From positions 180,001-212,000 of the forward strand of contig NZ_CP040089.1 in NCBI RefSeq assembly GCF_009617975.1: a stretch of 32,000 bases of DNA, read 5' to 3'. The notes beneath the pieces are model-generated. The model saw nothing but the letters and a program-made list of their open reading frames with translations. It ran no database searches and had not been told where the DNA came from. This document shows, piece after piece, positions 625 through 24,094 of this stretch. The translations under genes were made by a program, and so were the position numbers. Source of the stretch: Candidatus Nanohalobium constans (GTDB lineage Archaea; Nanohalarchaeota; Nanosalinia; Nanosalinales; Nanosalinaceae). Numbering within the stretch: position 1 is the stretch's first letter; each line of letters opens with the position of its first letter.

Positions 625-909
625 ATGAACAATCAAACCAAAATTTTCTTAGCAGCAATATTTCTAGGACTGATCACGGGTTTTGTCGCATCATCGATGC
701 AGCAAGAACCAAAACAATCATACTGCGAAAAAACCGAGGCTGCTATAAAGCAAAACACAAGTCTCTCAGGAGCTATAGCCTGTTTTGAACCAGGAACCGT
801 AGAGTTCAACTTAAGTGATAAAGTAGAGGAAAGCGCAGAACTTAAATGCGTCTGCAGAAGAAGCTCTGAAGGAGAAGTACAGTTCTGGGCGATTAACAAA
901 GCCCTTTAA
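625..909 (+). CDS. Small membrane-anchored or exported Cys-containing protein (hypothetical)
   Basis: I prefer the ATG at 625 over the track start at 565 because a hydrophobic anchor follows at once (KIFLAAIFLGLITGFVASS). The roughly 70-aa tail has 4 Cys. The stop shares a TTAA (906-909) with the convergent gene. No family recognised. Confidence 0.45.
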   Translation: MNNQTKIFLAAIFLGLITGFVASSMQQEPKQSYCEKTEAAIKQNTSLSGAIACFEPGTVEFNLSDKVEESAELKCVCRRSSEGEVQFWAINKAL

Positions 910-2737: not shown

Positions 2738-2764
2738 AAGACTCCAGCAACAATTCTCAACTAC

Positions 2765-9777: not shown

Positions 9778-10670
9778 CAGTCCTCACCTGCCTCATCGAA
9801 GTATTTAGCGAACTTGGCTGAGAACTGGTCACGTGTATCAATCTTTATGATTGAGGCGCCGGCACCTTCAACCTTGTTAACAATCCTTTCCTCTCGTTTC
9901 TGAGCCTCCTCATTATACTCTTCTTTGACCTTGGACGTGTTGACGACTAATTGTTCTCCTGTAGAGATATCTCCAAAACGCATGTTCCCATTATCCGGGA
10001 GTTTGTAGTCCCTCAAGTCCTTCACCATCACATTCATGACATGCCGGAACTTTTTCGAAGCAACAAGCATCTTAGACTTCCAGTCCCCCTTGGGTCTGAT
10101 AAAGTCAGATATAATAAATACAGAAGTATTTTCCTTAATCTGTCCAATTATGCTGTTTAAAGCATGCTCAAGGTTAAAATCGCCGCCATAATTTCCGAAA
10201 TCAGCCACCTCATGAAGAATCCTCTGGTACTGTGCATTACCGCCTCCTGGAGCAATATACAGCTCGTCCTCTCCAAAAAGACCGAAGCCAACATCAATAC
10301 CGGCATCAGTAGAAGCGTAAGCGATAGCAGCAGCAACAACTGCTGCGTACTCTGACTTCATCTTGTCTGTAGTACCGAACATCATGGAGTTGGACGCATC
10401 CAGAGCGATGAATACGTCCATGTCCTTTTCCTCCTCGTACTCCTTGACGAAAAGGTCTTCTGACTTGGCCGAGTTCTTCCAGTCGATTCTTGATGCGTCG
10501 TCACTGGTATTGTACTGTCTTAGGTCGGAGAACTCGATGCCCGAAGCCTGGAACTGCTCCTTGTACTTCAACGCGAATCGAAACGTATCGGCGACTCGCT
10601 TAACCTCGGAGTCCACCTCTGCAACGACATCGTCAGTCTCGAAGAAATCCTCCTCACGCATCTCAGTCAT
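9774..10670 (-). CDS. DUF58 family protein (VWA-like, canonical MoxR partner)
   Basis: Motifs GIEFSDLRQYNTSDDASRIDWKNSAK and VFIALDASNSMMFG are typical of DUF58. Its position between a MoxR ATPase and a BatA-like VWA gene supports the call. Confidence 0.85.
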   Translation of the reverse strand: MTEMREEDFFETDDVVAEVDSEVKRVADTFRFALKYKEQFQASGIEFSDLRQYNTSDDASRIDWKNSAKSEDLFVKEYEEEKDMDVFIALDASNSMMFGTTDKMKSEYAAVVAAAIAYASTDAGIDVGFGLFGEDELYIAPGGGNAQYQRILHEVADFGNYGGDFNLEHALNSIIGQIKENTSVFIISDFIRPKGDWKSKMLVASKKFRHVMNVMVKDLRDYKLPDNGNMRFGDISTGEQLVVNTSKVKEEYNEEAQKREERIVNKVEGAGASIIKIDTRDQFSAKFAKYFDEAGEDW

Positions 10671-10709: not shown

Positions 10710-11093
10710 CTACTTGTTCCTGAAGTTCTTGTTCTCAGTATCAATGTCTTCGTAGAATTCATCTGAACTCAGTATAGGCATTCCTTCTGACAGTGCTGCG
10801 TGAAAGGCGTCAAATATTGTCGAGTTCTTCTCATCTATGTAGAACATCGCCTGTAGGACTGTCTCTTCATCAGTATACATTAAATCACAGAAGCTCAGTA
10901 TATCTCTAACAAGAGGTGCGAAATTTTCTATATCGTAATCTCTATCAAGAATCATTACAACCTCGGCTAAGGCCAATATAGAAGTCTCTATATCTCCTCT
11001 GTTTTCTTCCAAGACTTCCATAGCGCTTTCCTTCAGCCAATCTTCATCCTTTATGACTGCTAGGATAAAATCTGAGTCGGCGTAAATAACTAC
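10710..11093 (-). CDS. vapC: PIN-domain toxin (VapC-like); no canonical start codon in the open frame
   Basis: The track ORF starts at an internal Met (11021). The frame stays open upstream to 11093 and encodes VVIYADSDFILAVIKDEDWLKESA, which supplies the first PIN acidic residue. The other PIN signatures are IETSILALAEVV and FDAFHAALSEGMPILSSDEFY. Between the in-frame TGA (11096-11094) and the first Asp there are only GTA GTT ATT TAC GCC. Confidence 0.7.
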   Translation of the reverse strand, partial: VVIYADSDFILAVIKDEDWLKESAMEVLEENRGDIETSILALAEVVMILDRDYDIENFAPLVRDILSFCDLMYTDEETVLQAMFYIDEKNSTIFDAFHAALSEGMPILSSDEFYEDIDTENKNFRNK

Positions 11094-11326
11094 TCACCTG
11101 CCTGTTCCTTCAAGGCTTCACGAGCCTCTTCTTGAAGTTCTTTAGCACTTCTGTCGTCCTCTCTAACACTCTTAGTTCTCTCCCTTAAATCTTCTATCGG
11201 ATCCTCAGGTATAGGTATAAGCCGGATAGAACCTTCAAATCTAACAATACGATATTCCTTCTCATCCTTTCTATATTCTTTTGGGATGACGATTCTACCT
11301 CTAGAGTCCATTTCAACTTTAGCCAT
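11090..11326 (-). CDS. vapB: AbrB/SpoVT-type antitoxin (VapB-like)
   Basis: MAKVEMDSRGRIVIPKEYRKDEKEYRIVRFEGSIRLIPI is a SpoVT-AbrB swapped-hairpin motif, followed by an acidic and basic C-terminal tail. I prefer the ATG at 11326 to the GTG at 11377. The stop overlaps the start region of the PIN ORF. Confidence 0.75.
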   Translation of the reverse strand: MAKVEMDSRGRIVIPKEYRKDEKEYRIVRFEGSIRLIPIPEDPIEDLRERTKSVREDDRSAKELQEEAREALKEQAGE

Positions 11327-11377
11327 TTTTATCCCACATTGTTTATTTGGTTCCCAAGAATTAAATTTCTTTCCCAC

Positions 11378-12385
11378 TTACCTAACCGGGACACGATTCA
11401 CGATGTTCTCAATGATGTCCTCAACCTCGATTCCCTGAGCCTCTCCCTCGTAGTTAAGCATGATTCTATGGACGAAAACCTCCTCGATAATATCTCTGAT
11501 GTCCTCAGGAGTCACGTAATGCCTGCCCTGATAAAGCGCTTGAGCTCTTCCAGCCAAAGCCAGGTTAATAGAAGCTCTCGGTGTACAGCCCCATTCAATA
11601 TAATCGGCGTACTCCATGCCATAGTCAGCAGGGTTTCTGGATGCATCGACCAGGTCAACGATGTATTCCTTGATTTCCGGTCGTACAACAACCTGTTTGG
11701 AGAATGCCTGAAGATTCTTCACTTCCTCTCTCGAGACAACAGCCGAAACATCAAAGTCATCGTCATCCATGATATTGGCGTTCATATCGATGATCTTCTG
11801 CTCATTCTTCTTCTTAGGATAGTCTAAATAGATCTTGAAAAGAAATCTGTCGATCTGAGCCTCTGGGAGCGGATAAGTTCCTCCCTGCTCGACCGGGTTC
11901 TGCGTAGCCATAGTGAAGAACGGTTCTGGCAGATGGAAGGTTTCATCTCCGATAGATACTTTGTGCTCCTGCATAGCCTCAAGCATAGCACTTTGAACTT
12001 TTGGCGGTGCACGGTTGATTTCGTCGGCTAGGATGAAGTTAGCGAAAATCGGTCCTTTCTCAACGTAGAAACCTTTGTCATCGTTGTAAGCCTCTACGCC
12101 GACGATGTCGGAAGGTAGTTTGTCCGGCGTGAACTGGATACGATTGAACTCTGTGTTCTCAACAACTCTTCCAAGCTGTTCGACCAGAAGACTTTTTCCC
12201 AGTCCTGGTACGCCTTCAAGCAAAATGTTTCCTCCGGCGGCAACTGTAAGTAGTATCTTGTTGATGACCTCTTCCTGTCCAATGTAACCCTTCTGAATCT
12301 CACTCTCCATCCTGTGCATTATCTCCTTGAAATGCTCGGCCTTCTCCTCCATCTCTGACTCGGAAAGATCATCATACTTTGCCAT
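11378..12385 (-). CDS. moxR: MoxR-family AAA+ ATPase
   Basis: Walker A LLEGVPGLGKS, Walker B ILADEINRAPPKVQSAMLEAMQE, and a sensor region TQNPVEQGGTYPLPEAQIDRF. I prefer the ATG at 12385 (MAKYDDLSE...) to the TTG at 12451, because a TATA-like box lies about 26 nt upstream of 12385. Confidence 0.9.
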   Translation of the reverse strand: MAKYDDLSESEMEEKAEHFKEIMHRMESEIQKGYIGQEEVINKILLTVAAGGNILLEGVPGLGKSLLVEQLGRVVENTEFNRIQFTPDKLPSDIVGVEAYNDDKGFYVEKGPIFANFILADEINRAPPKVQSAMLEAMQEHKVSIGDETFHLPEPFFTMATQNPVEQGGTYPLPEAQIDRFLFKIYLDYPKKKNEQKIIDMNANIMDDDDFDVSAVVSREEVKNLQAFSKQVVVRPEIKEYIVDLVDASRNPADYGMEYADYIEWGCTPRASINLALAGRAQALYQGRHYVTPEDIRDIIEEVFVHRIMLNYEGEAQGIEVEDIIENIVNRVPVR

Positions 12386-12399
12386 AAAGAATACTCGTG

Positions 12400-12416
12400 A
12401 ACTCTGGAATAAAAAA
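12400..12416 (-). promoter_or_regulatory. TATA-containing 17-nt element upstream of MoxR (copy 1)
   Basis: The plus strand reads aactctggaataaaaaa, 15-31 nt upstream of the MoxR ATG (12385). It is an exact copy of 10688-10704. Confidence 0.55.
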
Positions 12417-12477
12417 CTACGATCAACCAAAGATTTAATACTTTGGTGCAACTATAGAATACTAGGGTGAAATAATT

Positions 12478-12711: not shown

Positions 12712-13017
12712 ATGCAGCTTGAAGTAACCGAAGAAGCCGAAGAAGACCTGGAAGCTCTGGAAAAAGATATCAAAGATAGAATTATAGATGAGCTGGAAAA
12801 ACTTCAGAAAAATGCAACACCTGAAAAATCAACCTATATACAAATCGGCGACATGGACTTATTCCGTTTGAAACTGCAAAAAGAAGATAGAAATTCCAGA
12901 TTAAATCACAGAATCTTTTACCAGATAAAAGACAGCAAGATATACATCAGAGGAATCTTCCACAGACAGAAAGGCTACGGTACAGAAACAAGGCAAGAAC
13001 TGGAAGACAGAATCTAA
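12712..13017 (+). CDS. RelE/ParE-superfamily toxin
   Basis: About 100 aa. FRLKLQKEDRNSRLNHRIFYQIKDSKIYIRGIFHRQKGY fits the RelE/ParE C-terminal beta sheet pattern (yR.r.g..Ri.Y.i....i.i..i.hR). It sits immediately downstream of an RHH gene. Confidence 0.7.
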   Translation: MQLEVTEEAEEDLEALEKDIKDRIIDELEKLQKNATPEKSTYIQIGDMDLFRLKLQKEDRNSRLNHRIFYQIKDSKIYIRGIFHRQKGYGTETRQELEDRI

Positions 13018-13393: not shown

Positions 13394-14599
13394 TTAGTTG
13401 CTTCCTAGCTGAGAGTCTGCAGTTGCGACAACGGTTACTGTACCTGTGTCAATTCTGCTTCTGTCGACTCCGTTCGGTAGCTGAACTCCAATGTTAATTG
13501 GGAAGTTCTGTCCAGGCTGTAATCTGTCTCCGTCAGTGTTTGCGAAGAAGATTGCCTGCTGTGCACCAGAGTTTGTCTCACTTGTCCTGTATGTCGGATT
13601 GCCGCTTGAAAGCTGCGGGCTCTGTTGCTCGACGTTGAAGTGAGTTCTGACAATCTGGGTGCCATTAGCGTTATCTCCATCTACAAAAAGATTGTAATTT
13701 CTAGCTTCTGAACTGTCAATGTCGCTTGCGTTTGAAGATGCAGATCCTTCGTTAATCAAGCTTTGACCTGTGAACTGGTCGCTTGATGTGTCGAATGAGA
13801 CGAGCGTATGGCTGTCAATTCTTGAGACTCCTGATTCTCCGCTTGATGACTGGCTACTTGCGTTGTACTCTGTGTAGTCAACTTCTCCGTCCACATCGTC
13901 AGGGTTTCTAAAGTCTACTGTTCCTAGCTGTGTTGGTGTGTGAGGAGTGTCTCCTACTCTCAGTACCCAGTCGTCGTTTGTTCCTGTACTTGGAGTGCTT
14001 GTTTCTGAGTAAAGTGCCCAGAAATATTCTGCAGCTCCGACACGGAATCTTCCTACTCTTGAAGCGCCAATGTCGTTAATTGCTGTTGTTCCTCCTGTAA
14101 GTTGTACTCCATCGTTATCTCCATCTGTTTCTTCGTTGAAGATGTACTCTGGAGGATTCTCTTCAGCGTACTCAACTCTGTTCAGGTAGGTCATGTTACT
14201 TAGTCCGTTGACACCGGGAATTGAATACTCGTTGGATGCCGTTTCTGTACTTAGTGTCACAAAGTTACCTGTGTTGAAGTTGTTTGCTGATGAGTCTCCG
14301 AAAGGATTGTCTTGATGCATTGTAGCTTCAGCGTGTATCTGTTCGATTGGAACAGATCCAATGTTTTCTAAGTCGATGTGTTCGTATCCTTCGTCAGAAA
14401 TAGCTACATCTGCACCGGGTGCAATCCCTGAGTCGCCGCTACCTTCTCCGTATGTTAGAGCGGAAGGGCGAACATCTATCTGAGTCACATCCGAGACATT
14501 GACTGTTACATCGCTTTCTTGTTCCTGAGCTGTTACTGAAGAGACCATGCCGAATGTTATTGCAGCCGTTAATAGTGTTAGTGCTAATTTTCTTTTCAT
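13394..14599 (-). CDS. Secreted Thr/Ser/Asn/Gly/Asp-rich protein without a membrane anchor; candidate abundant surface or filament subunit
   Basis: Sec signal peptide MKRKLALTLLTAAITFGMVSSVTAQE and no C-terminal TM. An Ig-like motif is present (IAPGADVAISDEGYEHIDLENIGSVPIE). A perfect SD GGAGGTGA lies 8 nt before the ATG. A 307-nt upstream region and an oligo-T terminator make this a monocistronic unit. Confidence 0.8.
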   Translation of the reverse strand: MKRKLALTLLTAAITFGMVSSVTAQEQESDVTVNVSDVTQIDVRPSALTYGEGSGDSGIAPGADVAISDEGYEHIDLENIGSVPIEQIHAEATMHQDNPFGDSSANNFNTGNFVTLSTETASNEYSIPGVNGLSNMTYLNRVEYAEENPPEYIFNEETDGDNDGVQLTGGTTAINDIGASRVGRFRVGAAEYFWALYSETSTPSTGTNDDWVLRVGDTPHTPTQLGTVDFRNPDDVDGEVDYTEYNASSQSSSGESGVSRIDSHTLVSFDTSSDQFTGQSLINEGSASSNASDIDSSEARNYNLFVDGDNANGTQIVRTHFNVEQQSPQLSSGNPTYRTSETNSGAQQAIFFANTDGDRLQPGQNFPINIGVQLPNGVDRSRIDTGTVTVVATADSQLGSN

Positions 14600-14607
14600 C
14601 TAAAATT

Positions 14608-14615
14608 TCACCTCC
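14608..14615 (-). promoter_or_regulatory. Shine-Dalgarno GGAGGTGA of the 401-aa secreted-protein gene
   Basis: The plus strand reads tcacctcc, which is GGAGGTGA on the minus strand, with 8 nt of spacing to the ATG at 14599. Confidence 0.6.
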
Positions 14616-14873
14616 TTATGCTTGATAACTGGTTTTTTCCGTTGGAAAGTTGAAGATTTCTTATCTAAAATTCCTACAAAACAACTACTAGAAGAACCGA
14701 TACTGGAAATTTGGGTTGATGTGTCTAATCTTTTTACCATGTTAGATTTACCTTGTTCATTCTGCCCCTCATAATCCCCTACCTCAGATTTTGCAAAGCC
14801 GGTATAAAAAGGTTTTACTAATATTCCGACTTACCCATTTTCGCTTCATTCTGTTCTGATGCTGTTCGCTGGG

Positions 14874-14880
14874 TTTAAAA
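14874..14880 (+). promoter_or_regulatory. TATA-like box (TTTAAAA) for the 14907 operon
   Basis: It lies 27-33 nt upstream of the ATG at 14907 with no SD in between, consistent with a leaderless transcript. Confidence 0.45.
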
Positions 14881-14906
14881 TCCTTCAAAAATATAGGTTG
14901 TGATAT

Positions 14907-16010
14907 ATGAAGCTAAGACTCATCCTATTAATTTTATCTGGTTTAATGTTCTCAACTCTTGCTGCAGGGAATTCCGTAGGCGCATTACCAGGTACTATTG
15001 ATTTTGGCACAGTTAATCCAGGAGAAACAGTTACACAAGAAATTTATATTAGAGGAACAAATGTGCCTGAAAATTTTTCAATAAGACCTAGTGCAAACAG
15101 TGTTGACGCCTCAACACTCTTTTCGGGAGATGCTGAAGACAAAAGAGAAATATCTGAGCAAAGTGCGGAGGACTGGTGGAATTTTGAAAGGAGCCTTGTA
15201 AACCCTGAAACTGAAGTAGATTATTCAGAGGTCAATGTTCAGAATCCGCCTACGCTGCATGGATCTACAACTGCTACCTTGGAAATACCTAATGATGCAG
15301 AACCAGGAGTGCGATATGGTCATATTCGCTTAAACCCTGACTTTTCTCCTCTTAACCAAAGCAGCGGTTCAGGAGCAAAAATTGTATCTCCTACTCGTTT
15401 AACTTACTCGTTTAGAGTATCTGGAACTGTAAGAAGAGATATAGAGGTGCAGGATGTAAGAGGGTTTAGATTGGACGAAGATGAAGCTGCTGTCGAGGTA
15501 CTCCTTGTGAATGAAGGTACTGTTACGACATCTACAGAGAATCTTAGATTAGATATACTTGATTCGAGCAGGGATGAAGAGACAACCTTGACTGCTTCAG
15601 GAACTTCGCTTGCTCCGGGAGAATCACAATGGGTGGAGGCAAACTGGGCAGATAACTCTGGAATTGAACAGGGAGAATACCAAGTAGGAGGGCAGGTAGA
15701 CTATTTGACTGGGAGCGCTACTGCCTCAGGAGACTTCTCGCTGCCAGATTTTGATGTTGTTGAGGTTAGACCAGAGGATAGTCCTGGAAGCGACAATCAA
15801 GATGGGGGCAGTGTTCCAATCTGGTTCGTAATTATTGTACTGGTTATTCTCGGTGTTTTGATGTGGGGCTTTGAGATTGAGCCTTTCTGGATAGTCACCA
15901 TTTTGGGAGTTCTCGGTATTTCGGCGTTTGTTTTGTTGAGTGGTTTGCCGAATTACTTGTTGGTAGTATTATTAATCATGGTTGGTATCGTTATCTATGG
16001 AGGAATGTAA
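14907..16010 (+). CDS. Exported protein with two Ig-like (CARDB/NEW3-like) modules and three C-terminal TM helices
   Basis: Signal peptide MKLRLILLILSGLMFSTLAAG. The first module is GTIDFGTVNPGETVTQEIYIRG ... LEIPNDAEPGVRYGHIRL. The second is VEVLLVNEGTVTTSTENLRLDIL ... APGESQWVEANW ... GEYQVGGQVDY. The C-terminus is IWFVIIVLVILGVLMWGF, FWIVTILGVLGISAFVLL and LLVVLLIMVGIVIYG. Confidence 0.75.
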   Translation: MKLRLILLILSGLMFSTLAAGNSVGALPGTIDFGTVNPGETVTQEIYIRGTNVPENFSIRPSANSVDASTLFSGDAEDKREISEQSAEDWWNFERSLVNPETEVDYSEVNVQNPPTLHGSTTATLEIPNDAEPGVRYGHIRLNPDFSPLNQSSGSGAKIVSPTRLTYSFRVSGTVRRDIEVQDVRGFRLDEDEAAVEVLLVNEGTVTTSTENLRLDILDSSRDEETTLTASGTSLAPGESQWVEANWADNSGIEQGEYQVGGQVDYLTGSATASGDFSLPDFDVVEVRPEDSPGSDNQDGGSVPIWFVIIVLVILGVLMWGFEIEPFWIVTILGVLGISAFVLLSGLPNYLLVVLLIMVGIVIYGGM

Positions 16011-16013
16011 AAC

Positions 16014-16508
16014 ATGGAACTGCCTGAGTTAGACGAGTTGAAACAGCTGGATAGAAAGAAAATCTTGTTGGGAACAACAGCCTTAATCTTGGTGCTTCTA
16101 GCAGCAGGTGCGGTTTATGCATATTCTCAGGTTGATGTAAATAATAAGGATGCATCTTTCAGCACTAATGCTACCATTCTTGATTCTAATGAGTCGGAGA
16201 ATTTGACGGCTGGTCTTGCTATGGGTCAGGGCATGAGTTTTGGAAAGTTTTCCTCCAATTTTAACAAGACCAAGTCCTTGAATCTTTCAGCAGATAGCTT
16301 GACTCTTGCCGAGGTAGAGGTCGAAGGCAATATCTCGGATAGACTGGATTACGAGGAGAGACATCTCTTTGAGGGAAGGACTCAGATTCCTTTCGAGTTA
16401 CACGGTAATCAGTCTGGATTCTTTGAAGGTGAGATAAATCTTGAATTGAAAACCGCCCAGAACAAGTGGGGAGAGAAATGGCTAAACTTCCAGTACAACT
16501 ACTTCTAA
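16014..16508 (+). CDS. Small exported or N-terminally anchored protein with a TasA/camelysin-like N-terminal signature (tentative)
   Basis: An SD-like GGAGGA lies 12 nt upstream, inside the end of the preceding gene. The N-terminus RKKILLGTTALILVLLAAGAVYAYSQVDVNNKDASFSTNATILD resembles SipW-type signal peptides and the following TasA-family block. The C-terminus EINLELKTAQNKWG resembles the family's last strand. This comparison is from memory only. Confidence 0.65.
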   Translation: MELPELDELKQLDRKKILLGTTALILVLLAAGAVYAYSQVDVNNKDASFSTNATILDSNESENLTAGLAMGQGMSFGKFSSNFNKTKSLNLSADSLTLAEVEVEGNISDRLDYEERHLFEGRTQIPFELHGNQSGFFEGEINLELKTAQNKWGEKWLNFQYNYF

Positions 16509-17293
16509 TCCTTTTTATTCTTCCCGCAGTTGCTGGATTAAATTTTGATGTAGATGTCTCAGCAATTACCGACCACTCTGTCAAGGATATAGAATATGGT
16601 GAGGATATTTCCGGAACTCAGGGAATCAACGCCACTGTAGAAAACGTCGGCAGCATCGGCTGCACCTACAGAATGAAGGCTGATTTCCAACAGGGAAATG
16701 AAAGCTTTGAACGATTTTCTTCTCCAGAGCCGCTGTGGCAGGGAGACTACGAGAGATTGGAGATAAAATACATTCCAACAAACTACACTGGCAAAATTGA
16801 AACTAATCTCTCTCTGCAGTACTGCGACCAAGAAAAACAGATAGACTCTTTCAACTTCAACGTAACAGAAAACACCACAATCAACTCCACAGTCGACTCC
16901 AGAACAGTTTCCTCAAATCATGAAAGTTCAAAGATAGAAATAAAGGGAGATACGCTTATTCCACAGGAAGAGCCAAGTTACTGGAAAACCAGTTCAGCAC
17001 AGATAATTAACGGAACAGCAGAGATAGAGTACGACGCCCCGATCTTCGACAGACAAGAAGAAATAACCTATACAGTCATAGAAGACGGAGAGATAATAGG
17101 CAGCACTACCGTAGGATTTAAACCAGAACCAACACTGAAGGAGAAAATCATCGACAAGAAACTAGAGGTACTGACAGGGCTTCTTACTGCTTCAATACTT
17201 TTCAATATCCTCCTAGTGCTCAAACAAAAAGGTATTTTAGCCAGGCTTCAAAGCCTCGAATACCAACTCCCCGACTTCAAAAAACAAGACTAA
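16478..17293 (+). CDS. Exported Ig-like protein with a C-terminal TM anchor (hypothetical)
   Basis: I prefer the ATG at 16478 (MAKLPVQLLLILFILPAVAG), which is preceded by GGGGAGAG. It overlaps the upstream gene by 31 nt. A CARDB-like motif is present (INATVENVGSIGCTYRMKADF). The anchor is LTGLLTASILFNILLVL, followed by KQK. Confidence 0.7.
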   Translation: MAKLPVQLLLILFILPAVAGLNFDVDVSAITDHSVKDIEYGEDISGTQGINATVENVGSIGCTYRMKADFQQGNESFERFSSPEPLWQGDYERLEIKYIPTNYTGKIETNLSLQYCDQEKQIDSFNFNVTENTTINSTVDSRTVSSNHESSKIEIKGDTLIPQEEPSYWKTSSAQIINGTAEIEYDAPIFDRQEEITYTVIEDGEIIGSTTVGFKPEPTLKEKIIDKKLEVLTGLLTASILFNILLVLKQKGILARLQSLEYQLPDFKKQD

Positions 17294-17346
17294 AAAACAC
17301 CTATCAGGAAACCCGTAACCCGCTAACCACGATACTCAAGTTAAAA

Positions 17347-17354
17347 CTTTAAAG
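17347..17354 (+). promoter_or_regulatory. TATA-like box (CTTTAAAG) for the 894-aa gene
   Basis: It lies 26-33 nt upstream of the ATG at 17380 with no SD, matching the pattern at other first genes in the window. Confidence 0.45.
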
Positions 17355-17379
17355 CAAAGTCACGAACCATACAATATTA

Positions 17380-20064
17380 ATGGCATCCAAGAAAACCATA
17401 CTGCTTCTAACACTTATCTTATTCACAGGAATTTCAGCTGCGCAGCCCAATAACATTACGGGTGAGGTCAAAGACGAGTTCTGGCTTAATCAGGATGATG
17501 CTATTCAAAGTTTCGGTGTAGAATTCGCCGGCCCATGTGAAAATACTGCTGTAGAAGTTTTCTCAAGTGAAGAGGAGGTAACTGATGTTGAGAATACAAG
17601 TGAGTCCGGGAATACCTATGAAATTGCTCCAAGCGATCTTTCCGGTCCTGCGAATTATACTATCGAAGCATCGTGCGAGAATGAAAATGTGAGTTCTGCT
17701 GAAACAAGTTTTCTTGCCGATAATATCCAACTCAGTGTAGGGAGTATTGATTCTAGTTCTGATGATCCTGTCTTCTACCCTGGTGATACTGTATCTGGGC
17801 AGCTCGACCTATCAACTGAGGGAAGTGTAATAGAATCTGTTCCAAGCTCTCTCGAATTTGATTCATCTTTTGAAAACGGTGTAAGTGTTAATCAAGAGTA
17901 CGACTTTCAGGTTGATGCTTCTTCGAGTGATACTGGTGAAAATTCAATAAGTTTGATAAATTATGAGACTTCTGCAGGAGATATCACTGTTGAACCTGTC
18001 TGGCAGGTAGAAAATAAGGTTGATGAGAAGGTTAAGCACAGGAATTTTCAGGATCTTTCTGTAACTTTCCAGATTACCAAGAAAGGAGATGCATACACCG
18101 GTTTTGAAGATGATGACTTTGAATTTGCCGGAGGTTCAGGCGATAACTTTGTTTCTGTAAGTACTGATGGCGACAGTTATACCCTTGACTTTGAATCTAC
18201 TCCAAAAGTTGATGATAGAGCCCCTACAGAGGAAACTTTTGAGTTAAGTGCTGATCCAAGAGAGCAAGATTTTGAAGAAGAATCTTTCAACATTGGTGAG
18301 ATAGAAATTGAAAAAGATATCGAGTTTTCAGGCGAGGTCCGTGACTTAGAGAGAAGCAGGGTTCCTGCTAAGTTCACAGCAGAGTTTGATAATCGAGATA
18401 CTGCTTTTGGGAACGGTGATTCTGCTTCATTTGAGAAGTTCTTCCCTGATGCAAAGGCTCCGATATTTGAGATGGATTTCCCAGAGGCAAAGTTTGAGCT
18501 TAAGAACTTTGAATTTGTCAGAGAGTATCCTGATGGTCAAGAAAGAGATATCAGATATAACTACTACGAAAAATTTGAGGGTATAGAGTTTGAGGGAGAT
18601 GCTTCAGATATTAGACCAGTAAATCTTGTCTCAATTGAATCTGATTATGACTTTGAGTCTGATCCTGATGAGAGTAGAGTGAACCTTGAATTTGATAGCA
18701 GTCAAGTTGAAGATACAAGAAATGTCGTAGTCTATGAGTGTGACTACTGGATGTTTGAAAGAGAAACATGTGCCAATGAATGGGAGGAGAAGGATGTCAG
18801 AACTCTTGGACAGGAGACTTTGAATGTGCAGATAAACCCTTATGATGAACAGTTTGGAGGAAATGCGAATGTTCTCTGGAATGCTTACTTGGTTGGTGTT
18901 CCTAAGGGTGTTGGTTCTAGTTTGACTCTTGAGAATAGTTTGGATGGTTTGCCTGGTAGGATTCAGGCTGGTGAGGAGTTTAGTATTTCAGGTACTGTGA
19001 TTGACAGTTCTACTGGTGAGGCTGTGGAGGATGCTGATGTTTCGATTGAGATTGTTTCTGGTGGTGGTAACAAGGTTACTCCTGACCAGGATATTGACAC
19101 AGGGGTGAATGGTAATTTTGAGTATTCGGATGTTGTGCGTGAGGCTGGCAGTTATTCGGCCAATATAGAGGTCTCTAAGAGTCCTTATGAGTCTTTTGTT
19201 TTTGAAGAAGAGAATGATGATAATGATAAGATGGAAGTGTATTATGAGACTGGTTTGACTGTCAGCAGTGAGGATGATGTCGATATTCGGTTCGGTGAGT
19301 CTTCCAGTGTGGAGTTTGATGTTGAGAATGTCGGTCAGTCGGAGGTTGAGGACCTGTCATTTGATACTGAAGTATCGGGTATCGATGAGGAATATTATAG
19401 TTGGAGTCTGCCAAGTAGAAGCAGTATTAGTGAGGAGGGTTCTGTAACTGCTACCTTGAACTTGGATATTCCTTCGGATGCTGATGTTGCTCCAGGTCGG
19501 AAGACTATTTCTCTATCTGCTTCCGGTAACTCTGCTGATGAGAGCTTGGATAACTCTGCTACTGTTTACGCATCTGTACCAGCTCAGCAAGAGGATGAAT
19601 CAGATCAGCAGGAGTCGGAGACGGAAGAACGGAATAACTCCGGTTCTTCGTTTGATGTTCCTGATGCCAAGGATGTTTCAAATGTGACCGGAGAGTTTAT
19701 TCAGAGTCAAAGTGATATGAACTTGGCTCTAGGGCTTATCCTGATTTTTGGAGCTATCCTGGCTGTGACGGTTAGGAAGAGGAAGAATGATGGTGATAGG
19801 GATGATAGGAGGATGGGTGGTCGTGCGACCACTGCATCACATGCCGGTGGCTCTGGTAGGGGCAAGGTTCAGAAGCCTGATGTCTCTCCTCAAGATAACC
19901 AGGAAGAAGATACTGAAGACGGAGAGGAGCAAGAATCAGTTGAAGAAGAAAGTGGTTCAGGTACGGGTTCAAACGATGAGGAGGGCGAGTTTGTCTGTGA
20001 TACTTGCGGAGATAAGTTTGACACGGAGTCCGGTTTGAAGCTTCACAAACAGGCGCTTCACTGA
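17380..20064 (+). CDS. Large adhesin-like type I membrane protein: signal peptide, acidic beta-rich ectodomain with CarboxypepD_reg-like and NEW3/CARDB-like modules, one TM, and a disordered cytoplasmic tail ending in a C2H2 zinc finger
   Basis: Signal peptide MASKKTILLLTLILFTGISAAQ. The CarboxypepD_reg-like module is FSISGTVIDSSTGEAVEDADVSIEIV...TGVNGNFEYSDVVREAGSYSANIEV. The NEW3-like module is VEFDVENVGQSEVEDLSFDTEV...PSDADVAPGRKTISLSA. The TM is LALGLILIFGAILAVTV, followed by RKRK. The tail ends FVCDTCGDKFDTESGLKLHKQALH. Confidence 0.8.
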   Translation: MASKKTILLLTLILFTGISAAQPNNITGEVKDEFWLNQDDAIQSFGVEFAGPCENTAVEVFSSEEEVTDVENTSESGNTYEIAPSDLSGPANYTIEASCENENVSSAETSFLADNIQLSVGSIDSSSDDPVFYPGDTVSGQLDLSTEGSVIESVPSSLEFDSSFENGVSVNQEYDFQVDASSSDTGENSISLINYETSAGDITVEPVWQVENKVDEKVKHRNFQDLSVTFQITKKGDAYTGFEDDDFEFAGGSGDNFVSVSTDGDSYTLDFESTPKVDDRAPTEETFELSADPREQDFEEESFNIGEIEIEKDIEFSGEVRDLERSRVPAKFTAEFDNRDTAFGNGDSASFEKFFPDAKAPIFEMDFPEAKFELKNFEFVREYPDGQERDIRYNYYEKFEGIEFEGDASDIRPVNLVSIESDYDFESDPDESRVNLEFDSSQVEDTRNVVVYECDYWMFERETCANEWEEKDVRTLGQETLNVQINPYDEQFGGNANVLWNAYLVGVPKGVGSSLTLENSLDGLPGRIQAGEEFSISGTVIDSSTGEAVEDADVSIEIVSGGGNKVTPDQDIDTGVNGNFEYSDVVREAGSYSANIEVSKSPYESFVFEEENDDNDKMEVYYETGLTVSSEDDVDIRFGESSSVEFDVENVGQSEVEDLSFDTEVSGIDEEYYSWSLPSRSSISEEGSVTATLNLDIPSDADVAPGRKTISLSASGNSADESLDNSATVYASVPAQQEDESDQQESETEERNNSGSSFDVPDAKDVSNVTGEFIQSQSDMNLALGLILIFGAILAVTVRKRKNDGDRDDRRMGGRATTASHAGGSGRGKVQKPDVSPQDNQEEDTEDGEEQESVEEESGSGTGSNDEEGEFVCDTCGDKFDTESGLKLHKQALH
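19990..20061 (+). other. Classical C2H2 zinc-finger motif at the extreme C-terminus of the 894-aa membrane protein
   Basis: F-V-C-DT-C-GDK-F-DTESG-L-KL-H-KQAL-H equals F-x-C-x2-C-x3-F-x5-L-x2-H-x4-H. Every consensus position of the TFIIIA-type finger is occupied, and the stop codon follows the last His directly. Confidence 0.75.
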
Positions 20065-20074
20065 GAAATTTCCT

Positions 20075-20857
20075 TTATTTTGAGATATTTCTTTTTATAT
20101 TCCGGAGCCCTCTCTTGAATTTGGCGAACTTTGGTGGTTCGTATTTTCCGCCTTCTAGACTGGCTGCTAGTTTCTGTATTTCGATTGCTGCCTCGCTGTA
20201 CTCGTTGAAGAGCACGAGTGGTGTGTTTTCGAAAAGGCTTTCTTTCATTTCTGCGTCGTAAGGTATTTGTCCTAGGATGTGGCTTTCTGTCATCATTTCG
20301 ACTTCTCTTTCTACTAGTTCTTTGTCTGGTTCGTCTTCTACTTTGTTGATGACTGTACCTAGTATTGGTTGCTGCATTTCCTTGCATTTTTCGATTATCT
20401 GTGCTGCGTTGATTCCTGCTGTCTGTGTGGGCATTGTGACTATCATTAGTTCGTCGCAAGCGTCTATTATGCTTTCAACTGTCTTATTTAGTCCTGGTGG
20501 GCAGTCAACCAGTACGTAGTCCGATTCTTTGCTTGCTTCCGTAAGTATGTCTCTGAGGCTGGATGTTTCTGGTTCCACCTTGTTAATTTCGTTGCTTGAG
20601 GTCAATGCTTTGATCCCAGTCGGGTGTCTGAAGATAGCTGATTCTGTTTCTGCGTTTCCATGCAGTACGTCCTGTATTTTGACAGGGTGGTCGTATCGTC
20701 CTAGGTAAACTCCTAGGTTTGAAGCTGAGAAGTCGGCGTCGACTATAGTTACTTCTTTTTCTCTTTGTTGTAGTGCTATTCCCAGGTTTACTGTCAAAGT
20801 GGTTTTTCCTACTCCGCCTTTTCCTGAGATCAGACCTACTATTCTTCCATCTGCCAT
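20075..20857 (-). CDS. minD: MinD/ParA-family ATPase (archaeal MinD type)
   Basis: Deviant Walker A GLISGKGGVGKTTLTVNLG, Walker A' VTIVDADF and Walker B YVLVDCPPG. The basic amphipathic C-terminus PKFAKFKRGLRNIKRNI looks like a membrane-targeting helix. A TATA-like TTTATTAAAC (plus coordinates 20884-20893) lies about 30 nt upstream. Confidence 0.9.
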   Translation of the reverse strand: MADGRIVGLISGKGGVGKTTLTVNLGIALQQREKEVTIVDADFSASNLGVYLGRYDHPVKIQDVLHGNAETESAIFRHPTGIKALTSSNEINKVEPETSSLRDILTEASKESDYVLVDCPPGLNKTVESIIDACDELMIVTMPTQTAGINAAQIIEKCKEMQQPILGTVINKVEDEPDKELVEREVEMMTESHILGQIPYDAEMKESLFENTPLVLFNEYSEAAIEIQKLAASLEGGKYEPPKFAKFKRGLRNIKRNISK

Positions 20858-20961: not shown

Positions 20962-21378
20962 ATGTCAAGATTCTGGATTGGGGTTGGGGTAGTTTTTGTA
21001 ATTGGTTTGCTGACAATTTTTTCAGCTACCGGAAACACGAATGCGGTGTATGTAAACGATCTTGAAACTGAGTGTCGAGGAGATCGGGCTGAATCAACGA
21101 GTATCAGCTTGCAGCAGGATAACTCTATAAGATTTGAAGGATACTTTCCGGTAGAAAACACTAATTCTGACATGAGCTTCAATTACAACGGAGGAAGCAG
21201 CATGGTATTGAATGTTAAGTCTCAAAACCTGGCAGCGCCTGACTTCTTATGGTATGACTGCCTAGCATCCGGAGTGTATGATATTGAGACCTCGGAACTG
21301 AACGAAGGAAGATACTCTGTAGAAATTAAACACAATGGAGAAAGAGTAGAAAAAAGGATAATCAGGATTAAGAATTAA
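20962..21378 (+). CDS. N-terminally anchored small beta-rich protein (hypothetical)
   Basis: The anchor is FWIGVGVVFVIGLLTIFSA, and the ectodomain has 2 Cys. The stop shares a TTAA with the convergent ppsA stop (21375-21378). Confidence 0.55.
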   Translation: MSRFWIGVGVVFVIGLLTIFSATGNTNAVYVNDLETECRGDRAESTSISLQQDNSIRFEGYFPVENTNSDMSFNYNGGSSMVLNVKSQNLAAPDFLWYDCLASGVYDIETSELNEGRYSVEIKHNGERVEKRIIRIKN

Positions 21379-23921
21379 TCCAACTGGTACTTAGTTTCAC
21401 CATCCTTCTTAACCTCTACTTCTATCTTACCTTCCTTTGCTAGCCATCCAAGAGCCTGGTTAACTGTTTCACTATCCATAGCATCGTCAGCATGACTTTT
21501 CAGCTTCTTGGCAGTAGCTTTGCCCTGGTCATTCAAGATATTGTAGACTTCTCCGGCAGCATTACCAACATCATCAGGAGTCAAACCTGCAATATTCACA
21601 TCACTGAAATCACTGTTCTCCACTGAATCTCTTCCTTCCTCTGCATCAGCAACCTTCAAAATAGTCTCCAATGCGACATCTGGAGAAACAGAGATCGCAT
21701 CGATATTGTTCTCAACCAGGAACTCTGCGTAACCTTCATGGGTTGAAGGAGCGTCTCCACAGATGCCGACATGTCTATCCTTCTTGTGAGCCTTTCTAAT
21801 CAGTTTCCTGACTGATTCTTTCACTGCAGGATCCCTCTCATCGAATACTTCCTTCATCTTATCGCTGTTCCTGTCAACTCCAAGTGTTAACTGAGTTAAG
21901 TCGTTTGTCCCGACGGAGAAACCATCGAATACTTCAGCAAACTCTTCTGCACGGATAATGTTTGAAGGAATCTCTGCCATGACATACACATCGATATCTC
22001 CTTCATCCAGTCCATACTCCTTCATCTTTGCTCTGACCTTCTTGCCCTCGTCGATGGTACGGCAGAAAGGAACCATCACGGTGATATTGTCCAATCCTAG
22101 CTCATCGATACATCTGCGCAGTGCTTCACATTCCAGTTCGAATGCTTTCTGGAATACTTCGTCATAGTATCTTGAAGCTCCTCTGAATCCGATCATAGGG
22201 TTCGCTTCATCTGGCTCATAGTCTTCACCGCCTTCAAGCTGTGCATATTCGTCTGATTTGAAGTCGGAAAGTCGAACTACAACTTGGTCTGGATAGAATG
22301 CTGCCCCGATCTTACCTAGGCCGTCTCGGAGCGCCTGAACATATTCATCGTCTCTACCTTCTTCAATTAAGTGTAGCGGATGTTCTCCGACATGGCTGGA
22401 GATGATGAATTCTTCTCTTGCTAGTCCGACACCTTCAACGGGGAGCTGGGCTACATGGAATACTTCGCTTGGCTCTCCGATGTTGACTTGTACATCTGTA
22501 TCTGTATCTGGTATTTCATCCAGGTGGTGTTCTTCGACATTGAACTCTATTTCTCCATCCCAGATTCTGCCTGTGCTTGAAGAACAGTCTACAGTAACCT
22601 CTTGTCCATCGGATAACTGGCTTGTGGCGTTCTCCGTGCCGATGACTGCCGGTACTCCTAGTTCTCTGGATACGATTGCTGCGTGACTGGTTCGCCCGCC
22701 TTTATTGGTTATGATAGCTCCTGCTTTCTTCATAATTGGCTCCCAGTCTGGATCGGTCATGTCGGTTACCAGTACTTCTCCCTCTTCAAACTGGTCGATT
22801 TGCTTGGGCGATGAGAGGACATGTGCCTTCCCTGAGCCAATCTTGGAGCCAATTGCGCTCCCCTCAAGCAGTACCTCTGACTCTTCCTCGAGCTTGTAGT
22901 CTTTGATTACATTTTCGTCCTTCTCAGCCTGCACCGTCTCCGGTCTTGCCTGAACAATATACAGTTCGTTGGTCTGTCCGTCCAGAACCCACTCGATATC
23001 CATTGGCTTACCATAGTGTTCCTCAATCCGTAAGGCGTATTTAGCCAGTTCTTTTACCTGGTTGTCAGTTATACAGAATTTTTCCCGGTCGCTCTGAGGC
23101 ACTTTCTTCTCAATGTTTTCCTGTCCATCTCCGGATTCATGATCTTCGTTCCTAACCAGCTTCTTCTCCTTGTCGCCAACTTCTTTCTCAATTATTCCAA
23201 GATTCTCCTTAAACACAGTGAACTCGTCAGGATTGACTTCTCCGAGTACTACATACTCTCCTAGTCCGTAGCTTCCGTTGATTGTTACGACATTGTCGAA
23301 TCCGGAGTCTGGGTCCAGTGTAAACATTACTCCAGCCGCACCGATATCTGAACGCCCCATCTTCTGAACAACGGCTGATAACTTCACATCAAAGTGACTG
23401 AAATCTTTATCCTCACGATAAGAAATCGCTCTGTTTGTGAAAAGAGAAGCATAGCAATCCTTAATCCTCTTGATCAAGTCTTGCTTCCCAGAAACATTTA
23501 GATAAGTTTCCTGCTGTCCTGCGAAAGATGCTCCTGGAAGGTCCTCAGCTGTGGCAGATGAACGAACTGCTACTTCCGGGTTTTCTACTCCCAATCGTTC
23601 TTCTAGTTCTTCGTATTGTTTTACAAAGTCTTTTCTTAGATCCTCTGGCATGTCAGCTTCCTTGATATGAGCACGGATCTGCTTGCCTACTCGTTGTAGG
23701 CTGTTGACATCATCGATGTCTAATCCGTCGATTAGTGTCTCGATCTTGTCTCTCAGATCGGTGTCGTGTATAAATTTGTCGTATGCATCGGCAGTGGTCG
23801 CGAAACCAGGTAGAACAGGTACTTCGGTTTCGTTTCGGAGCTCTCCGAGATTTGCGCTTTTACCGCCTACTTTAGCGGTGTCGTCAGAGTTGATATCTTC
23901 GAACCAGAGGACATTCTTCAT
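21375..23921 (-). CDS. ppsA: Phosphoenolpyruvate synthase (pyruvate, water dikinase) with an additional C-terminal winged-helix (DUF2582-like) domain
   Basis: The N-terminus MKNVLWFEDINSDDTAKVGGKSANLGEL matches the PpsA start. The phospho-His motif is NKGGRTSHAAIVSRELGVPAVIG, and the PEP-utilising TIM-barrel motifs are GFSVGTNDLTQL and GICGD. I prefer the ATG at 23921 to 24047 because a TATA-like TTTTATATGG (plus coordinates 23942-23951) lies about 26 nt upstream. An extra roughly 85 aa follows the canonical end. Confidence 0.95.
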   Translation of the reverse strand: MKNVLWFEDINSDDTAKVGGKSANLGELRNETEVPVLPGFATTADAYDKFIHDTDLRDKIETLIDGLDIDDVNSLQRVGKQIRAHIKEADMPEDLRKDFVKQYEELEERLGVENPEVAVRSSATAEDLPGASFAGQQETYLNVSGKQDLIKRIKDCYASLFTNRAISYREDKDFSHFDVKLSAVVQKMGRSDIGAAGVMFTLDPDSGFDNVVTINGSYGLGEYVVLGEVNPDEFTVFKENLGIIEKEVGDKEKKLVRNEDHESGDGQENIEKKVPQSDREKFCITDNQVKELAKYALRIEEHYGKPMDIEWVLDGQTNELYIVQARPETVQAEKDENVIKDYKLEEESEVLLEGSAIGSKIGSGKAHVLSSPKQIDQFEEGEVLVTDMTDPDWEPIMKKAGAIITNKGGRTSHAAIVSRELGVPAVIGTENATSQLSDGQEVTVDCSSSTGRIWDGEIEFNVEEHHLDEIPDTDTDVQVNIGEPSEVFHVAQLPVEGVGLAREEFIISSHVGEHPLHLIEEGRDDEYVQALRDGLGKIGAAFYPDQVVVRLSDFKSDEYAQLEGGEDYEPDEANPMIGFRGASRYYDEVFQKAFELECEALRRCIDELGLDNITVMVPFCRTIDEGKKVRAKMKEYGLDEGDIDVYVMAEIPSNIIRAEEFAEVFDGFSVGTNDLTQLTLGVDRNSDKMKEVFDERDPAVKESVRKLIRKAHKKDRHVGICGDAPSTHEGYAEFLVENNIDAISVSPDVALETILKVADAEEGRDSVENSDFSDVNIAGLTPDDVGNAAGEVYNILNDQGKATAKKLKSHADDAMDSETVNQALGWLAKEGKIEVEVKKDGETKYQLD

Positions 23922-24094
23922 ACCAGAAAATTCTTCCAGCCGCCATATAAAACGGCCGTTATTATAGAAAGGTGGTACATTGTCTCTATCTGGAGATAGT
24001 TGAAAGTTTGAACTTTTCTTTAAACATTTGAAGATTTCTTTAATCACACTAACTTCTCCTGAAATAAAGGAGTAGAAGAGCTAAATTGAAAGAT

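Follow-up and report, generated by a model that had tools for sequence, protein, structure and literature searches.

What do five neighbouring genes for hypothetical proteins build in an archaeal cell envelope? DPANN archaea live by attachment to other cells, and to our knowledge almost nothing is known of their surface proteins; we know of no surface-layer (S-layer) or attachment protein assigned in Nanohaloarchaeota. The genes considered here, called locus 2, lie in a 32,000-nt stretch of the genome of Candidatus Nanohalobium constans (contig NZ_CP040089.1, positions 180,001 to 212,000), hereafter the window. They encode a secreted protein of 401 amino acids (aa) and, divergent from it, four proteins of 367, 164, 275 and 894 aa. 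A first-pass annotation made from the sequence had taken them for one uncharacterised surface system of related immunoglobulin (Ig)-like beta-sandwich modules. This is supported by the comparisons below, in which the gene set survives deep divergence and rearrangement. What is inherited together is a soluble exported 401-aa family, four Ig-type families with membrane anchors and a MinD ATPase of the membrane type, usually accompanied by a MoxR-DUF58-VWA gene string and by NEW3/CARDB proteins of the type found in a second surface locus of the window (locus 1). On balance we lean towards reading locus 2 as the nanohaloarchaeal version of a widely conserved, previously undescribed archaeal cell-envelope assembly module.

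Layout of the locus and its conservation in nanohaloarchaea

Are the five genes real? Each has conserved orthologues, so they are. The five open reading frames proposed earlier, with their exported or membrane-anchored products, were recovered at the same positions (Table 1), and each product begins with a signal peptide or an N-terminal anchor. Essentially no matches to the five products were found in Pfam or NCBIfam. The sole notable one, to "choice-of-anchor D", is below threshold and falls at the N-terminus of the 367-aa protein, which is itself a hypothetical protein of Candidatus Nanohalobium constans (100% identity). No tRNA and no Rfam element was found in the window.

The genes are closely packed. 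The 164-aa gene starts 3 nt after the 367-aa stop codon and overlaps the 275-aa gene by 31 nt, both as first described, or by 43 nt if a GTG start is used; a spacer of 86 nt precedes the 894-aa gene, and the end of the latter lies 10 nt from the MinD/ParA gene. The 367/164 and 164/275 junctions are tight or overlapping across nine nanohaloarchaeal loci. Genes that overlap or are spaced by 0-5 nt indicate co-translation.

Is this order kept in relatives? The arrangement 401 (minus), 367-164-275-894 (plus), MinD (minus) is found in nine further nanohaloarchaeal loci (L001, L003-L010), as far as the contigs reach, while protein identity falls to 28-36%. The exported proteins evolve fast, since their identity to the window is lower than that of MoxR and MinD (Table 1). 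Conservation of gene order, on which the proposal of a surface system hung, is thus found in the nine nanohaloarchaeal loci and, as a recurring gene set, in distant archaea.

Table 1. Features of locus 2 and of its surroundings in the window, with the identity of relatives to the window protein
Feature	Coordinates	Strand	Identity to window	Description
401-aa gene	13394-14599	-	28-42%	Sec-secreted, beta-rich, without membrane anchor; proposed abundant structural subunit; large unannotated family
Divergent control region	14600-14906			between the 401-aa and 367-aa genes
367-aa gene	14907-16010	+	36-51%	signal peptide, two Ig-like domains (first ASH/choice-of-anchor-D-like), three C-terminal transmembrane helices; putative membrane scaffold
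164-aa gene	16014-16508	+	37-54%	predicted N-terminal transmembrane anchor and single ASH/PapD-like Ig domain
271/275-aa gene	16466/16478-17293	+	32-65%	signal peptide, CARDB-like Ig ectodomain, two invariant cysteines, C-terminal transmembrane helix, short cytoplasmic tail
894-aa gene	17380-20064	+	29-39%	signal peptide, Ig/CarboxypepD_reg-like domains, conserved transmembrane helix, tail with C-terminal C2H2 zinc finger; adhesin-like
260-aa MinD/ParA-type P-loop ATPase	20075-20857	-	56-85%	proposed positioning or assembly ATPase
138-aa protein	20962-21378	+		small, N-terminal transmembrane helix and small beta-rich domain; membership in the system uncertain
ParE-family toxin	12712-13017			between MoxR and the 401-aa gene
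MoxR AAA+ ATPase	11378-12451	-	78-94%	conserved in relatives
PIN-domain and AbrB/MraZ-like toxin-antitoxin pair	10710-11377			between DUF58 and MoxR
DUF58 gene	9774-10670	-		MoxR-DUF58-VWA string
VWA membrane protein	8824-9777	-		BatA-like; MoxR-DUF58-VWA string
517-aa protein	7239-8792	-		hyper-acidic, cytoplasmic; end of the MoxR-DUF58-VWA gene string
Locus 1	2300-7247	+		four exported or anchored proteins (145, 587, 221 and 686 aa)

The gene set in distant archaea

Does the set hold together beyond the nanohaloarchaea? Two loci with distant 401-family members and non-acidic proteomes, L012 (GC content 52%) and L013 (37%), encode homologues of the 367-, 164- and 275-aa proteins that are detected by hidden Markov models (HMMs). 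An 894-aa homologue was likewise detected in L013, and a truncated CarboxypepD_reg protein takes the same position in L012. In both, a MinD/ParA gene stands between the 275-like and 894-like genes; L013 also has VWA, MoxR and DUF58 genes and homologues of the 686- and 587-aa proteins of locus 1. A metagenome scan with a distant 401 subfamily gave 72 more loci with GC contents of 28-52%, of which those of at least 6 kb were annotated by HMM. Every part of the system is retained in distant loci with non-acidic proteomes, at HMM E-values from 1e-6 to 1e-61.

Two arrangements recur. In the first, arrangement A, one to four 401-like copies lie by 367-, 164- and 275-like genes, MinD and one or two 894-like copies (L012, L013, L031, L039, L044, L049, L051, L055, L056, L057, L062, L082), with all these genes co-directional in L049 and L056. 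In arrangement B, two to four 401-like copies are followed by MoxR (two copies), DUF58 and VWA (L020, L043, L051, L054, L074, L076); the same genes are divergent in L029, L032 and L061, and homologues of the 686-, 587- and 221-aa proteins often adjoin. L051, on a contig of 1.56 Mb, keeps the same order as the Nanohalobium window from MinD through MoxR-DUF58-VWA to the 686-like gene.

How distant are these relatives? Their MinD and MoxR proteins are 41% and 48% identical to those of the window, order and orientation are reshuffled, and the flanks are unrelated. The contigs are archaeal, since they carry archaeal marker genes in their flanks: TiaS, class I LysRS, the small subunit of PolD, L21e, Rpb4, Pus10, and form III RuBisCO with AMP phosphorylase. 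The system extends far beyond Nanohaloarchaeota, into non-halophilic archaea.

The secreted 401-aa family

What kind of protein is the secreted one? Its orthologues share 28-62% identity, and an exhaustive HMMER profile search collected 249 clusters at E ≤ 1e-3 (207 at E ≤ 1e-10). No Pfam family matches the 401-aa family, and profile searches of Protein Data Bank (PDB) sequences with the 401, 367, 164 and 275 families returned nothing significant. The AlphaFold model is a single compact beta-rich domain with a predicted local distance difference test score (pLDDT) of 83.7 and a predicted template modelling score (pTM) of 0.84. Foldseek found no fold match to it below E 0.1 in the PDB or BFVD; the TasA fibre (8aur_A) ranks fourth with E 0.24 and probability 0.13. 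Judged from the model, the family would have a fold not seen in the PDB, and it is a candidate for the major subunit.

The proteins have ordinary Sec signal peptides with AxA-like cleavage sites, which leaves a mature subunit of about 375 aa. Directly after the predicted cleavage site comes a strand, SDVxVxVSxVTQLDVRPS, which is alternating-hydrophobic and belongs to the best-conserved elements of the family (124 diverse members). In the monomer model this conserved strand (residues 31-40) is unpaired and has lower pLDDT.

The gene also differs from its neighbours in its translation signal. A 9-nt Shine-Dalgarno (SD) sequence, AGGAGGTGA, stands 8 nt before the 401-aa start on the minus strand. 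It is the only one longer than 6 nt among the 32 genes of the window, most of the others looking leaderless, and an SD of 8-9 nt is conserved at this gene in L001, L004, L007, L008 and L010. In the distant loci an SD of at least 6 nt precedes 35 of 99 401-like genes, as against 0 of 18 367-like, 0 of 9 894-like, 2 of 18 MinD and 2 of 22 MoxR genes. The 367-aa gene has a TATA-like box, TTTAAAAT, about 27 nt before its start, which is of the leaderless type, and the TATA box first noted for the 894-aa gene is indeed present as a TATA-like CTTTAAAG about 30 nt upstream. The strong SD would fit a subunit that is produced in large excess over its anchors.

Where might the family come from? Relatives of it were sought in IMG/VR, INPHARED and PLSDB and none was found, and a viral or plasmid origin was rejected on this ground. 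One full-length homologue (profile E 3e-68) occurs in the haloarchaeon Natronococcus sp. A-GB1 (WP_278293401.1, positions 10001-11125 of L011), where it stands alone among integrase, TnpB, NrS1-type primase-polymerase and SHOCT genes. Because this lone copy lies among such genes, it suggests that a mobile element transferred the subunit gene between nanohaloarchaea and the group to which their hosts belong.

The anchored Ig-like proteins

How would a secreted subunit be held at the cell? Four membrane-anchored families accompany it. The AlphaFold model of the 367-aa protein (45-sequence alignment, pLDDT 87) has two beta-sandwich domains followed by three transmembrane (TM) helices, in agreement with the two Ig-like modules and three C-terminal TM helices predicted at first. 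Foldseek matches it to generic tandem Ig and ASH (PapD-like) proteins, namely Hydin, CEP192 and RbmA, and also to the enterococcal WxL-interacting protein (WxLIP). The latter gives the best superposition (9i1y/9i25, TM-score 0.41-0.44) and ranks 21st and 25th by E-value. The family has 47 members of 353-378 aa with 36-63% identity, and in nanohaloarchaea its best-conserved part is the TM block, in which a [DE]-I-[ED]-P turn is conserved as well. Distant homologues are found at E 1e-28 to 1e-61; in the wider family the two-domain ectodomain is kept, with one or three C-terminal TM helices. A word-indexed profile search returned the nanohaloarchaeal orthologues alone and a contig scan one locus, both under-reporting the family relative to the HMM.

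The 164-aa protein had been given a TasA-like N-terminus. In the wide alignment the N-terminus of the family is merely a TM helix, followed by one Ig domain. Pfam matches are to Cep192_D4 (7 of 19 sequences) and HYDIN_VesB_CFA65-like_Ig (6 of 19), and also to TMEM131_like_N, ASH and PapD-like domains; the PDB profile search points to Hydin, not significantly. The TasA-like identity was rejected on the wide alignment and these profile matches, and by its sequence the protein is best described as an N-anchored ASH/PapD-like Ig domain. An N-terminal TM helix with one beta-sandwich is an architecture that recalls what we take to be the design of ArlF and ArlG.

The 275-like gene adjoins the 164-like gene in all loci. 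Its family has weak CARDB/Cep192 matches, two invariant cysteines and a C-terminal TM helix; no Pfam family covers the 367- or 275-like proteins. The 894-aa family has CarboxypepD_reg/Big-like domains, with CarboxypepD_reg found in orthologues, a C-terminal TM helix and a short basic tail. Distant homologues (E 1e-28 to 1e-50) are always beside MinD. The cytoplasmic tail of the window protein (19990-20064) ends in a classical C2H2 finger, CDTCGDKFDTESGLKLHKQALH, of the form CX2CX3FX5LX2HX4H. This finger is present in 6 of 7 nanohaloarchaeal sequences; distant homologues are without it and end in a short basic ..SLHRIKxNL tail. The comparison marks the zinc finger as a likely nanohaloarchaeal addition.

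Two motifs had been read as a sign of related modules, and both do recur: DFGxVxPGE in the 367-aa protein and the 587-aa protein of locus 1, and EN[VI]GS in the 401- and 275-aa proteins, with ENVGQ in the 894-aa protein. Such motifs characterise Ig domains of the ASH/CARDB type and are generic to them.

Linked ATPases and neighbouring genes

Is there any energy-coupled part? The first-pass annotation saw no recognisable secretion ATPase. This stands in so far as neither the MinD/ParA nor the MoxR protein is strictly a secretion ATPase, but both are present. The MinD/ParA product has the deviant Walker A sequence SGKGGVGKTT (pattern xKGGxGK[ST]) and matches ParA/CbiA/MipZ in Pfam. A basic amphipathic C-terminal tail, PP[KR]F..[KR][KR]..R, is conserved in 22 of 22 system-linked MinD proteins and looks like a membrane-targeting helix. 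Wherever a locus extends far enough, the MinD gene adjoins the 894-like gene. In distant loci it lies inside the operon and is co-directional (L012, L013, L031, L039, L044, L049, L051, L055, L056, L057, L062), and a further MinD/894-like pair occurs in L044. Five loci have, between the 275-like gene and MinD, a gene for a KaiC/ArlH-like ATPase with one domain (PF06745, E 1e-56 to 1e-58); none was found among the window proteins.

The MoxR-DUF58-VWA string is directly downstream of 401-like genes in L001, L005, L006, L008, L009 and L010 and in the distant L020, L043, L051, L054, L074 and L076. In the six nanohaloarchaeal loci the 401-like gene lies 75-150 nt upstream of the string in the same direction. 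A single MoxR copy is present in nanohaloarchaeal loci; two tandem copies of about 325 aa precede DUF58 and VWA in L020, L029, L032, L043, L051, L054, L074 and L076. Toxin-antitoxin genes are inserted in the 401-MoxR-DUF58 string of the window, and other toxin-antitoxin genes at the same spot in L007. The system-linked MoxR gene contains an intein (Intein_splicing, with or without LAGLIDADG) in L007 (2342-5122) and L009 (1556-3472); the Nanohalobium copy is without one.

Other genes lie nearby. The 517-aa protein, which has long E/D/K/S-rich stretches and a conserved C-terminal region, is conserved in L001, L005, L006, L008 and L010, with weak matches at the same position in L028 and L076. The 337-aa Ser/Leu-rich open reading frame opposite it (7468-8481, plus strand) is an antisense artefact of its composition. 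The 138-aa protein has orthologues of 43-51% identity just after MinD in L001, L004, L005, L006 and L008 and was not found in distant loci. Neither protein matches a Pfam family. A PEP synthase/PPDK-type gene also lies near the cluster, both in the window (21375-24047, minus strand) and in L057 (14293-16755), and the nanohaloarchaeal protein has an extra C-terminal DUF2582 domain; this linkage is probably coincidental synteny.

Is locus 1 a copy of locus 2?

The two loci had been interpreted as paralogous, in part from weakly similar segments of the 221-aa and 367-aa proteins. These segments were recovered by neither blastp nor hhalign. All-against-all blastp between the loci gave nothing better than E 0.095, and with family alignments hhalign aligned signal peptides alone. 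After these were trimmed a single match was left, between residues 486-584 of the 686-aa protein (CARDB-like) and 583-701 of the 894-aa protein, at 40% probability. Paralogy was rejected at the sequence and profile level.

What is locus 1, then? Its 686-aa protein has NEW3 and CARDB domains and C-terminal TM helices in Pfam. Locus-1 homologues stand beside MoxR or 401-like genes in L013, L021, L028, L029, L051, L054, L064 and L076, and in L013, L029, L051 and L076, from distant genomes, locus-1 and locus-2 homologues are both present, each as a separate part of a single supercluster. Locus 1 is a co-occurring part of this supercluster; that it is a paralogue of locus 2 is not supported.

Divergent from locus 1 is a gene (906-1811, minus strand) whose 301-aa product combines a signal peptide, an extracellular domain that weakly matches DUF2207, a single TM helix and, on the cytoplasmic side, a winged-helix DUF7343 domain (E 1.4e-19). 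This protein looks like a membrane-bound one-component regulator and may regulate the surface genes.

What does the system build?

A working scheme can be drawn from these parts. The 401-family protein would be the structural subunit, made in abundance. Once it has been exported by Sec and cleaved by signal peptidase, its N-terminal strand would be completed by a partner, either the next 401 subunit or the PapD/ASH-like domain of the anchored 367- or 164-aa protein. Subunits would thereby be kept on the membrane scaffold and joined there into a fibre or lattice, with the 894-aa protein as its adhesive, distal portion. From the cytoplasmic face MinD may set where the TM scaffold is placed or assembled, perhaps acting through the 894-aa tail with its C2H2 finger in nanohaloarchaea. 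MoxR/VWA could serve as an assembly chaperone, and the KaiC-like ATPase, where present, may also control placement or assembly from the cytoplasm. The strand-complementation step is inferred from the model and the conserved strand.

Several observations weigh against an assembly module of this kind. Nanohaloarchaeal synteny is partly general genome collinearity, which runs to PEP synthase, eIF-6 and S19e; since it extends beyond the locus in the closer genomes, this synteny alone is moderate evidence. The MinD gene of nanohaloarchaea is in inverted orientation. Known pilin and S-layer proteins give no significant match to the 401 fold, the fourth-ranked TasA fibre (8aur, E 0.24) included. One 401 homologue is alone in the mobile-element-like Natronococcus region, and many 401-like genes are distant from the operon (L035, L048, L059, L067, L068, L075). 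The number of TM helices in the 367 family varies from one to three, so a three-TM base is not universal. Known strand-donation systems, that is Tafi, the bundling pili (ABP) and threads, are without MinD, KaiC-like and MoxR-VWA ATPases (PMC11821415, PMC12337348, PMC9245690).

If locus 2 is such a module, is it a fibre or a lattice? Pilin and S-layer genes are often multi-copy, as 401-like genes are. We regard the two as about equally likely sub-cases, each of them possible but rather unlikely taken singly. In the first, the product would be a Sec-dependent donor-strand-exchange fimbria of the Tafi or bundling-pilus kind, with 401-like proteins as major and minor pilins, the 367-aa protein as TafF-like membrane terminator or anchor, the 164- and 275-aa proteins as adapters or chaperones and the 894-aa protein as tip or basal adhesin. 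The conserved, alternating and unpaired N-terminal strand, the tandem paralogues of 401-like genes, the strong SD on the subunit gene alone and the PapD-like domains of the 164- and 367-aa proteins all agree with this, as does the TasA fibre among the top, non-significant Foldseek matches, and the architecture of the 367-aa protein mirrors TafF of Haloarcula hispanica (PMC11821415, PMC12337348). However, the archaeal strand-donation pilins known so far are half the size of this mature subunit, a single compact domain of about 375 aa (pTM 0.84). Neither by fold nor by profile does the subunit significantly match TasA, AbpA, TafA/E, DUF1102 or thread subunits, the locus is without a dedicated signal peptidase or a DUF5305 partner, and the known systems of this kind lack MinD, KaiC and MoxR.

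In the second sub-case the 401-aa protein would form the outer lattice of a two-component S-layer, the 367-, 164-, 275- and 894-aa proteins its membrane stalks, and MinD would mark the insertion zone. The model for such a layer is SlaB, which ties the SlaA lattice to the membrane. The 401-aa protein is secreted, has no anchor and diverges rapidly (28-42% identity as against 78-94% for MoxR), the only long SD of the window is on its gene, the system is near-universal among the sampled nanohaloarchaeal contigs, and Ig-like domains are typical of archaeal S-layer proteins. In addition, the surface of Nanohalobium is regular and S-layer-like with its S-layer protein unassigned (PMC7443923), and comparable Ig-like membrane proteins encoded beside MoxR/vWA were annotated as S-layer-like by Makarova et al. 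(2015; PMC5898192). On the other side, the 401-aa protein has no similarity to known S-layer proteins, up to four or more divergent paralogues occur per genome, and a stand-alone copy exists in a haloarchaeon with its own S-layer.

A bolder form of the assembly module is an ancient archaeal surface organelle, in which new-fold Sec subunits would be polymerised by strand complementation on PapD/ASH-like anchors, and a dedicated membrane-binding MinD, with or without a KaiC/ArlH-like ATPase, and a MoxR-VWA chaperone would set site and time. It would probably be common in DPANN-like lineages and, in nanohaloarchaea, would touch the haloarchaeal host. We hold this as a doubtful, speculative extension. 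If true, the organelle would correspond in function to the chaperone-usher pili of bacteria, and it would differ from all strand-donation fibres known so far in its trans-membrane coupling to a MinD ATPase and a MoxR-VWA chaperone.

Could the ATPases instead drive the whole? The 401-like proteins would then be cargo of a novel secretion or membrane-remodelling machine powered by MoxR/VWA with MinD or KaiC. One or two MoxR genes with DUF58 and VWA do come directly after 401-like genes in the majority of loci, several cytoplasmic ATPases are encoded along with a gene set whose other products are extracytoplasmic, and a MoxR-vWA-Ig-like membrane complex has been predicted in Euryarchaeota (PMC5898192). 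Such a machine is quite unlikely, however: the Sec signal peptides of the supposed cargo are ordinary, the cluster has no conserved polytopic channel-forming protein, and neither the DUF4350 marker of arCOG01314 nor DUF1616 proteins were detected. The MoxR linkage is also broken by insertions in the window and L007, and no MoxR is within reach in the operon loci L031, L055, L056, L057 and L062. Finally, that unrelated lineage-specific surface proteins without a common function stand together through the collinearity of small DPANN genomes is very improbable, for although collinearity in closer nanohaloarchaea runs to PEP synthase, eIF-6 and S19e and no protein of the set has a known function, six families stay together at GC contents of 28-52% despite reshuffled order and unrelated flanks, and the overlapping or 0-5-nt-spaced genes indicate co-translation.

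Is the structure made for host contact, as was proposed at first? In Nanohalobium it could serve in this way. A role specific to host attachment is weakened by the presence of the system in diverse non-halophilic archaea, among them the 1.56-Mb contig, and by the stand-alone Natronococcus homologue. We argue from the wide distribution that host attachment is not the ancestral function.

With the assembly module as the favoured reading, five hypothetical proteins become a defined, testable system with a parts list. Its link to MinD/ParA, KaiC-like and MoxR ATPases is unexpected, and its distribution extends well past hypersaline habitats. Should the MinD link be real, this would be a clear example of an archaeal Sec-dependent surface structure that has a positioning ATPase of its own. 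Nanohalobium constans grows in co-culture, so that the prediction is directly testable.

Comparison with known systems

Which known system is nearest? In published accounts of the Nanohalobium and Nanohaloarchaeum surfaces these genes are unmentioned. The archaellum and type IV pili can be set aside. Archaeal systems of this type likewise have MinD-type (FleN/MinD, arCOG00589) and KaiC/ArlH-like (FlaH) ATPases beside surface-structure genes (PMC4858521). However, T2SSE, T2SSF and peptidase_A24 (PilB/ArlI, PilC/ArlJ and prepilin peptidase) are absent from the window, no class III signal peptides were found, and the subunits are ordinary Sec substrates. The earlier statement that the window has no type IV pilin signal, prepilin peptidase, PilB/PilC-type, sortase or signal-peptidase gene holds at the Pfam level, signal-peptidase families included.

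Closest in logic are the Tat-fimbriae (Tafi), found in Haloarcula hispanica as well as in Natrinema sp. J7-2, and the related bundling pili of DUF1102/TasA-like type (ABP, threads), which are Sec-dependent. Like locus 2, Tafi is a cluster of exported beta-sandwich proteins, there major and minor subunits, an adapter and a large tip adhesin. Its anchor TafF, with a beta-sandwich and three C-terminal TM helices, has the same architecture as the 367-aa protein, the comparison being one of architecture only, and holds a secreted partner by strand insertion (PMC11821415, PMC12337348). Both are assembled without type IV machinery, have the N-terminal strand of the subunit directly after the signal-peptide cleavage site, and have a membrane-bound winged helix-turn-helix regulator nearby (TafB in Tafi, the 906-1811 product here). 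They differ in that the 401-aa subunit is twice as large and has no sequence or significant fold relation to TafA/E, AbpA, TasA or DUF1102, and in that locus 2 is without a TafD/SipW signal peptidase or DUF5305. Peptidase_M73 and DUF1102 gave no match in any locus protein or family member. A dedicated signal peptidase is not universal in strand-donation pili, as ABP has none (PMC9245690).

The closest published neighbourhood is the arCOG01314 MoxR-vWA-Ig-like complex, described in Thermococci, Methanococci and Archaeoglobi, in which a MoxR/GvpN AAA+ ATPase and a vWA protein accompany secreted or anchored Ig-like proteins with 2-4 hydrophobic segments, and whose surface or secretion role is a prediction only (PMC5898192). 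Both systems have a MoxR AAA+ ATPase and a vWA protein in the neighbourhood. The published one is without MinD/ParA, a 401-like family and an 894-like protein, and PF14258 (DUF4350/GldG-like, arCOG01314) and PF07760 (DUF1616, COG4743) had no match in the window proteins or family members. MoxR, DUF58 and a TM-anchored, BatA-like VWA protein also stand in the same order in Bat operons; these differ in having BatC (TPR), BatD and BatE, which are missing here, and are unlinked to Ig-like surface proteins or MinD.

A further parallel is the WxL/Csc system of Firmicutes. In its WxLIP (DUF916-DUF3324-TM), as in the 367-aa protein, tandem Ig domains are borne by a C-terminal TM anchor, and both proteins are encoded with small and large anchorless secreted partners; the partner of WxLIP is proposed to be held by beta-strand insertion (PMC10599100). 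WxLIP differs in being bacterial, peptidoglycan-linked, with one TM helix and without ATPases, and WxL, DUF916 and DUF3324 gave no profile match here. The resemblance, seen in a model, appears architectural and is not demonstrably one of homology. Among all these, the system of locus 2 is best filed as an archaeal Sec-dependent surface assembly, set apart by the fold of its subunit and by its linkage to MinD, KaiC and MoxR ATPases.

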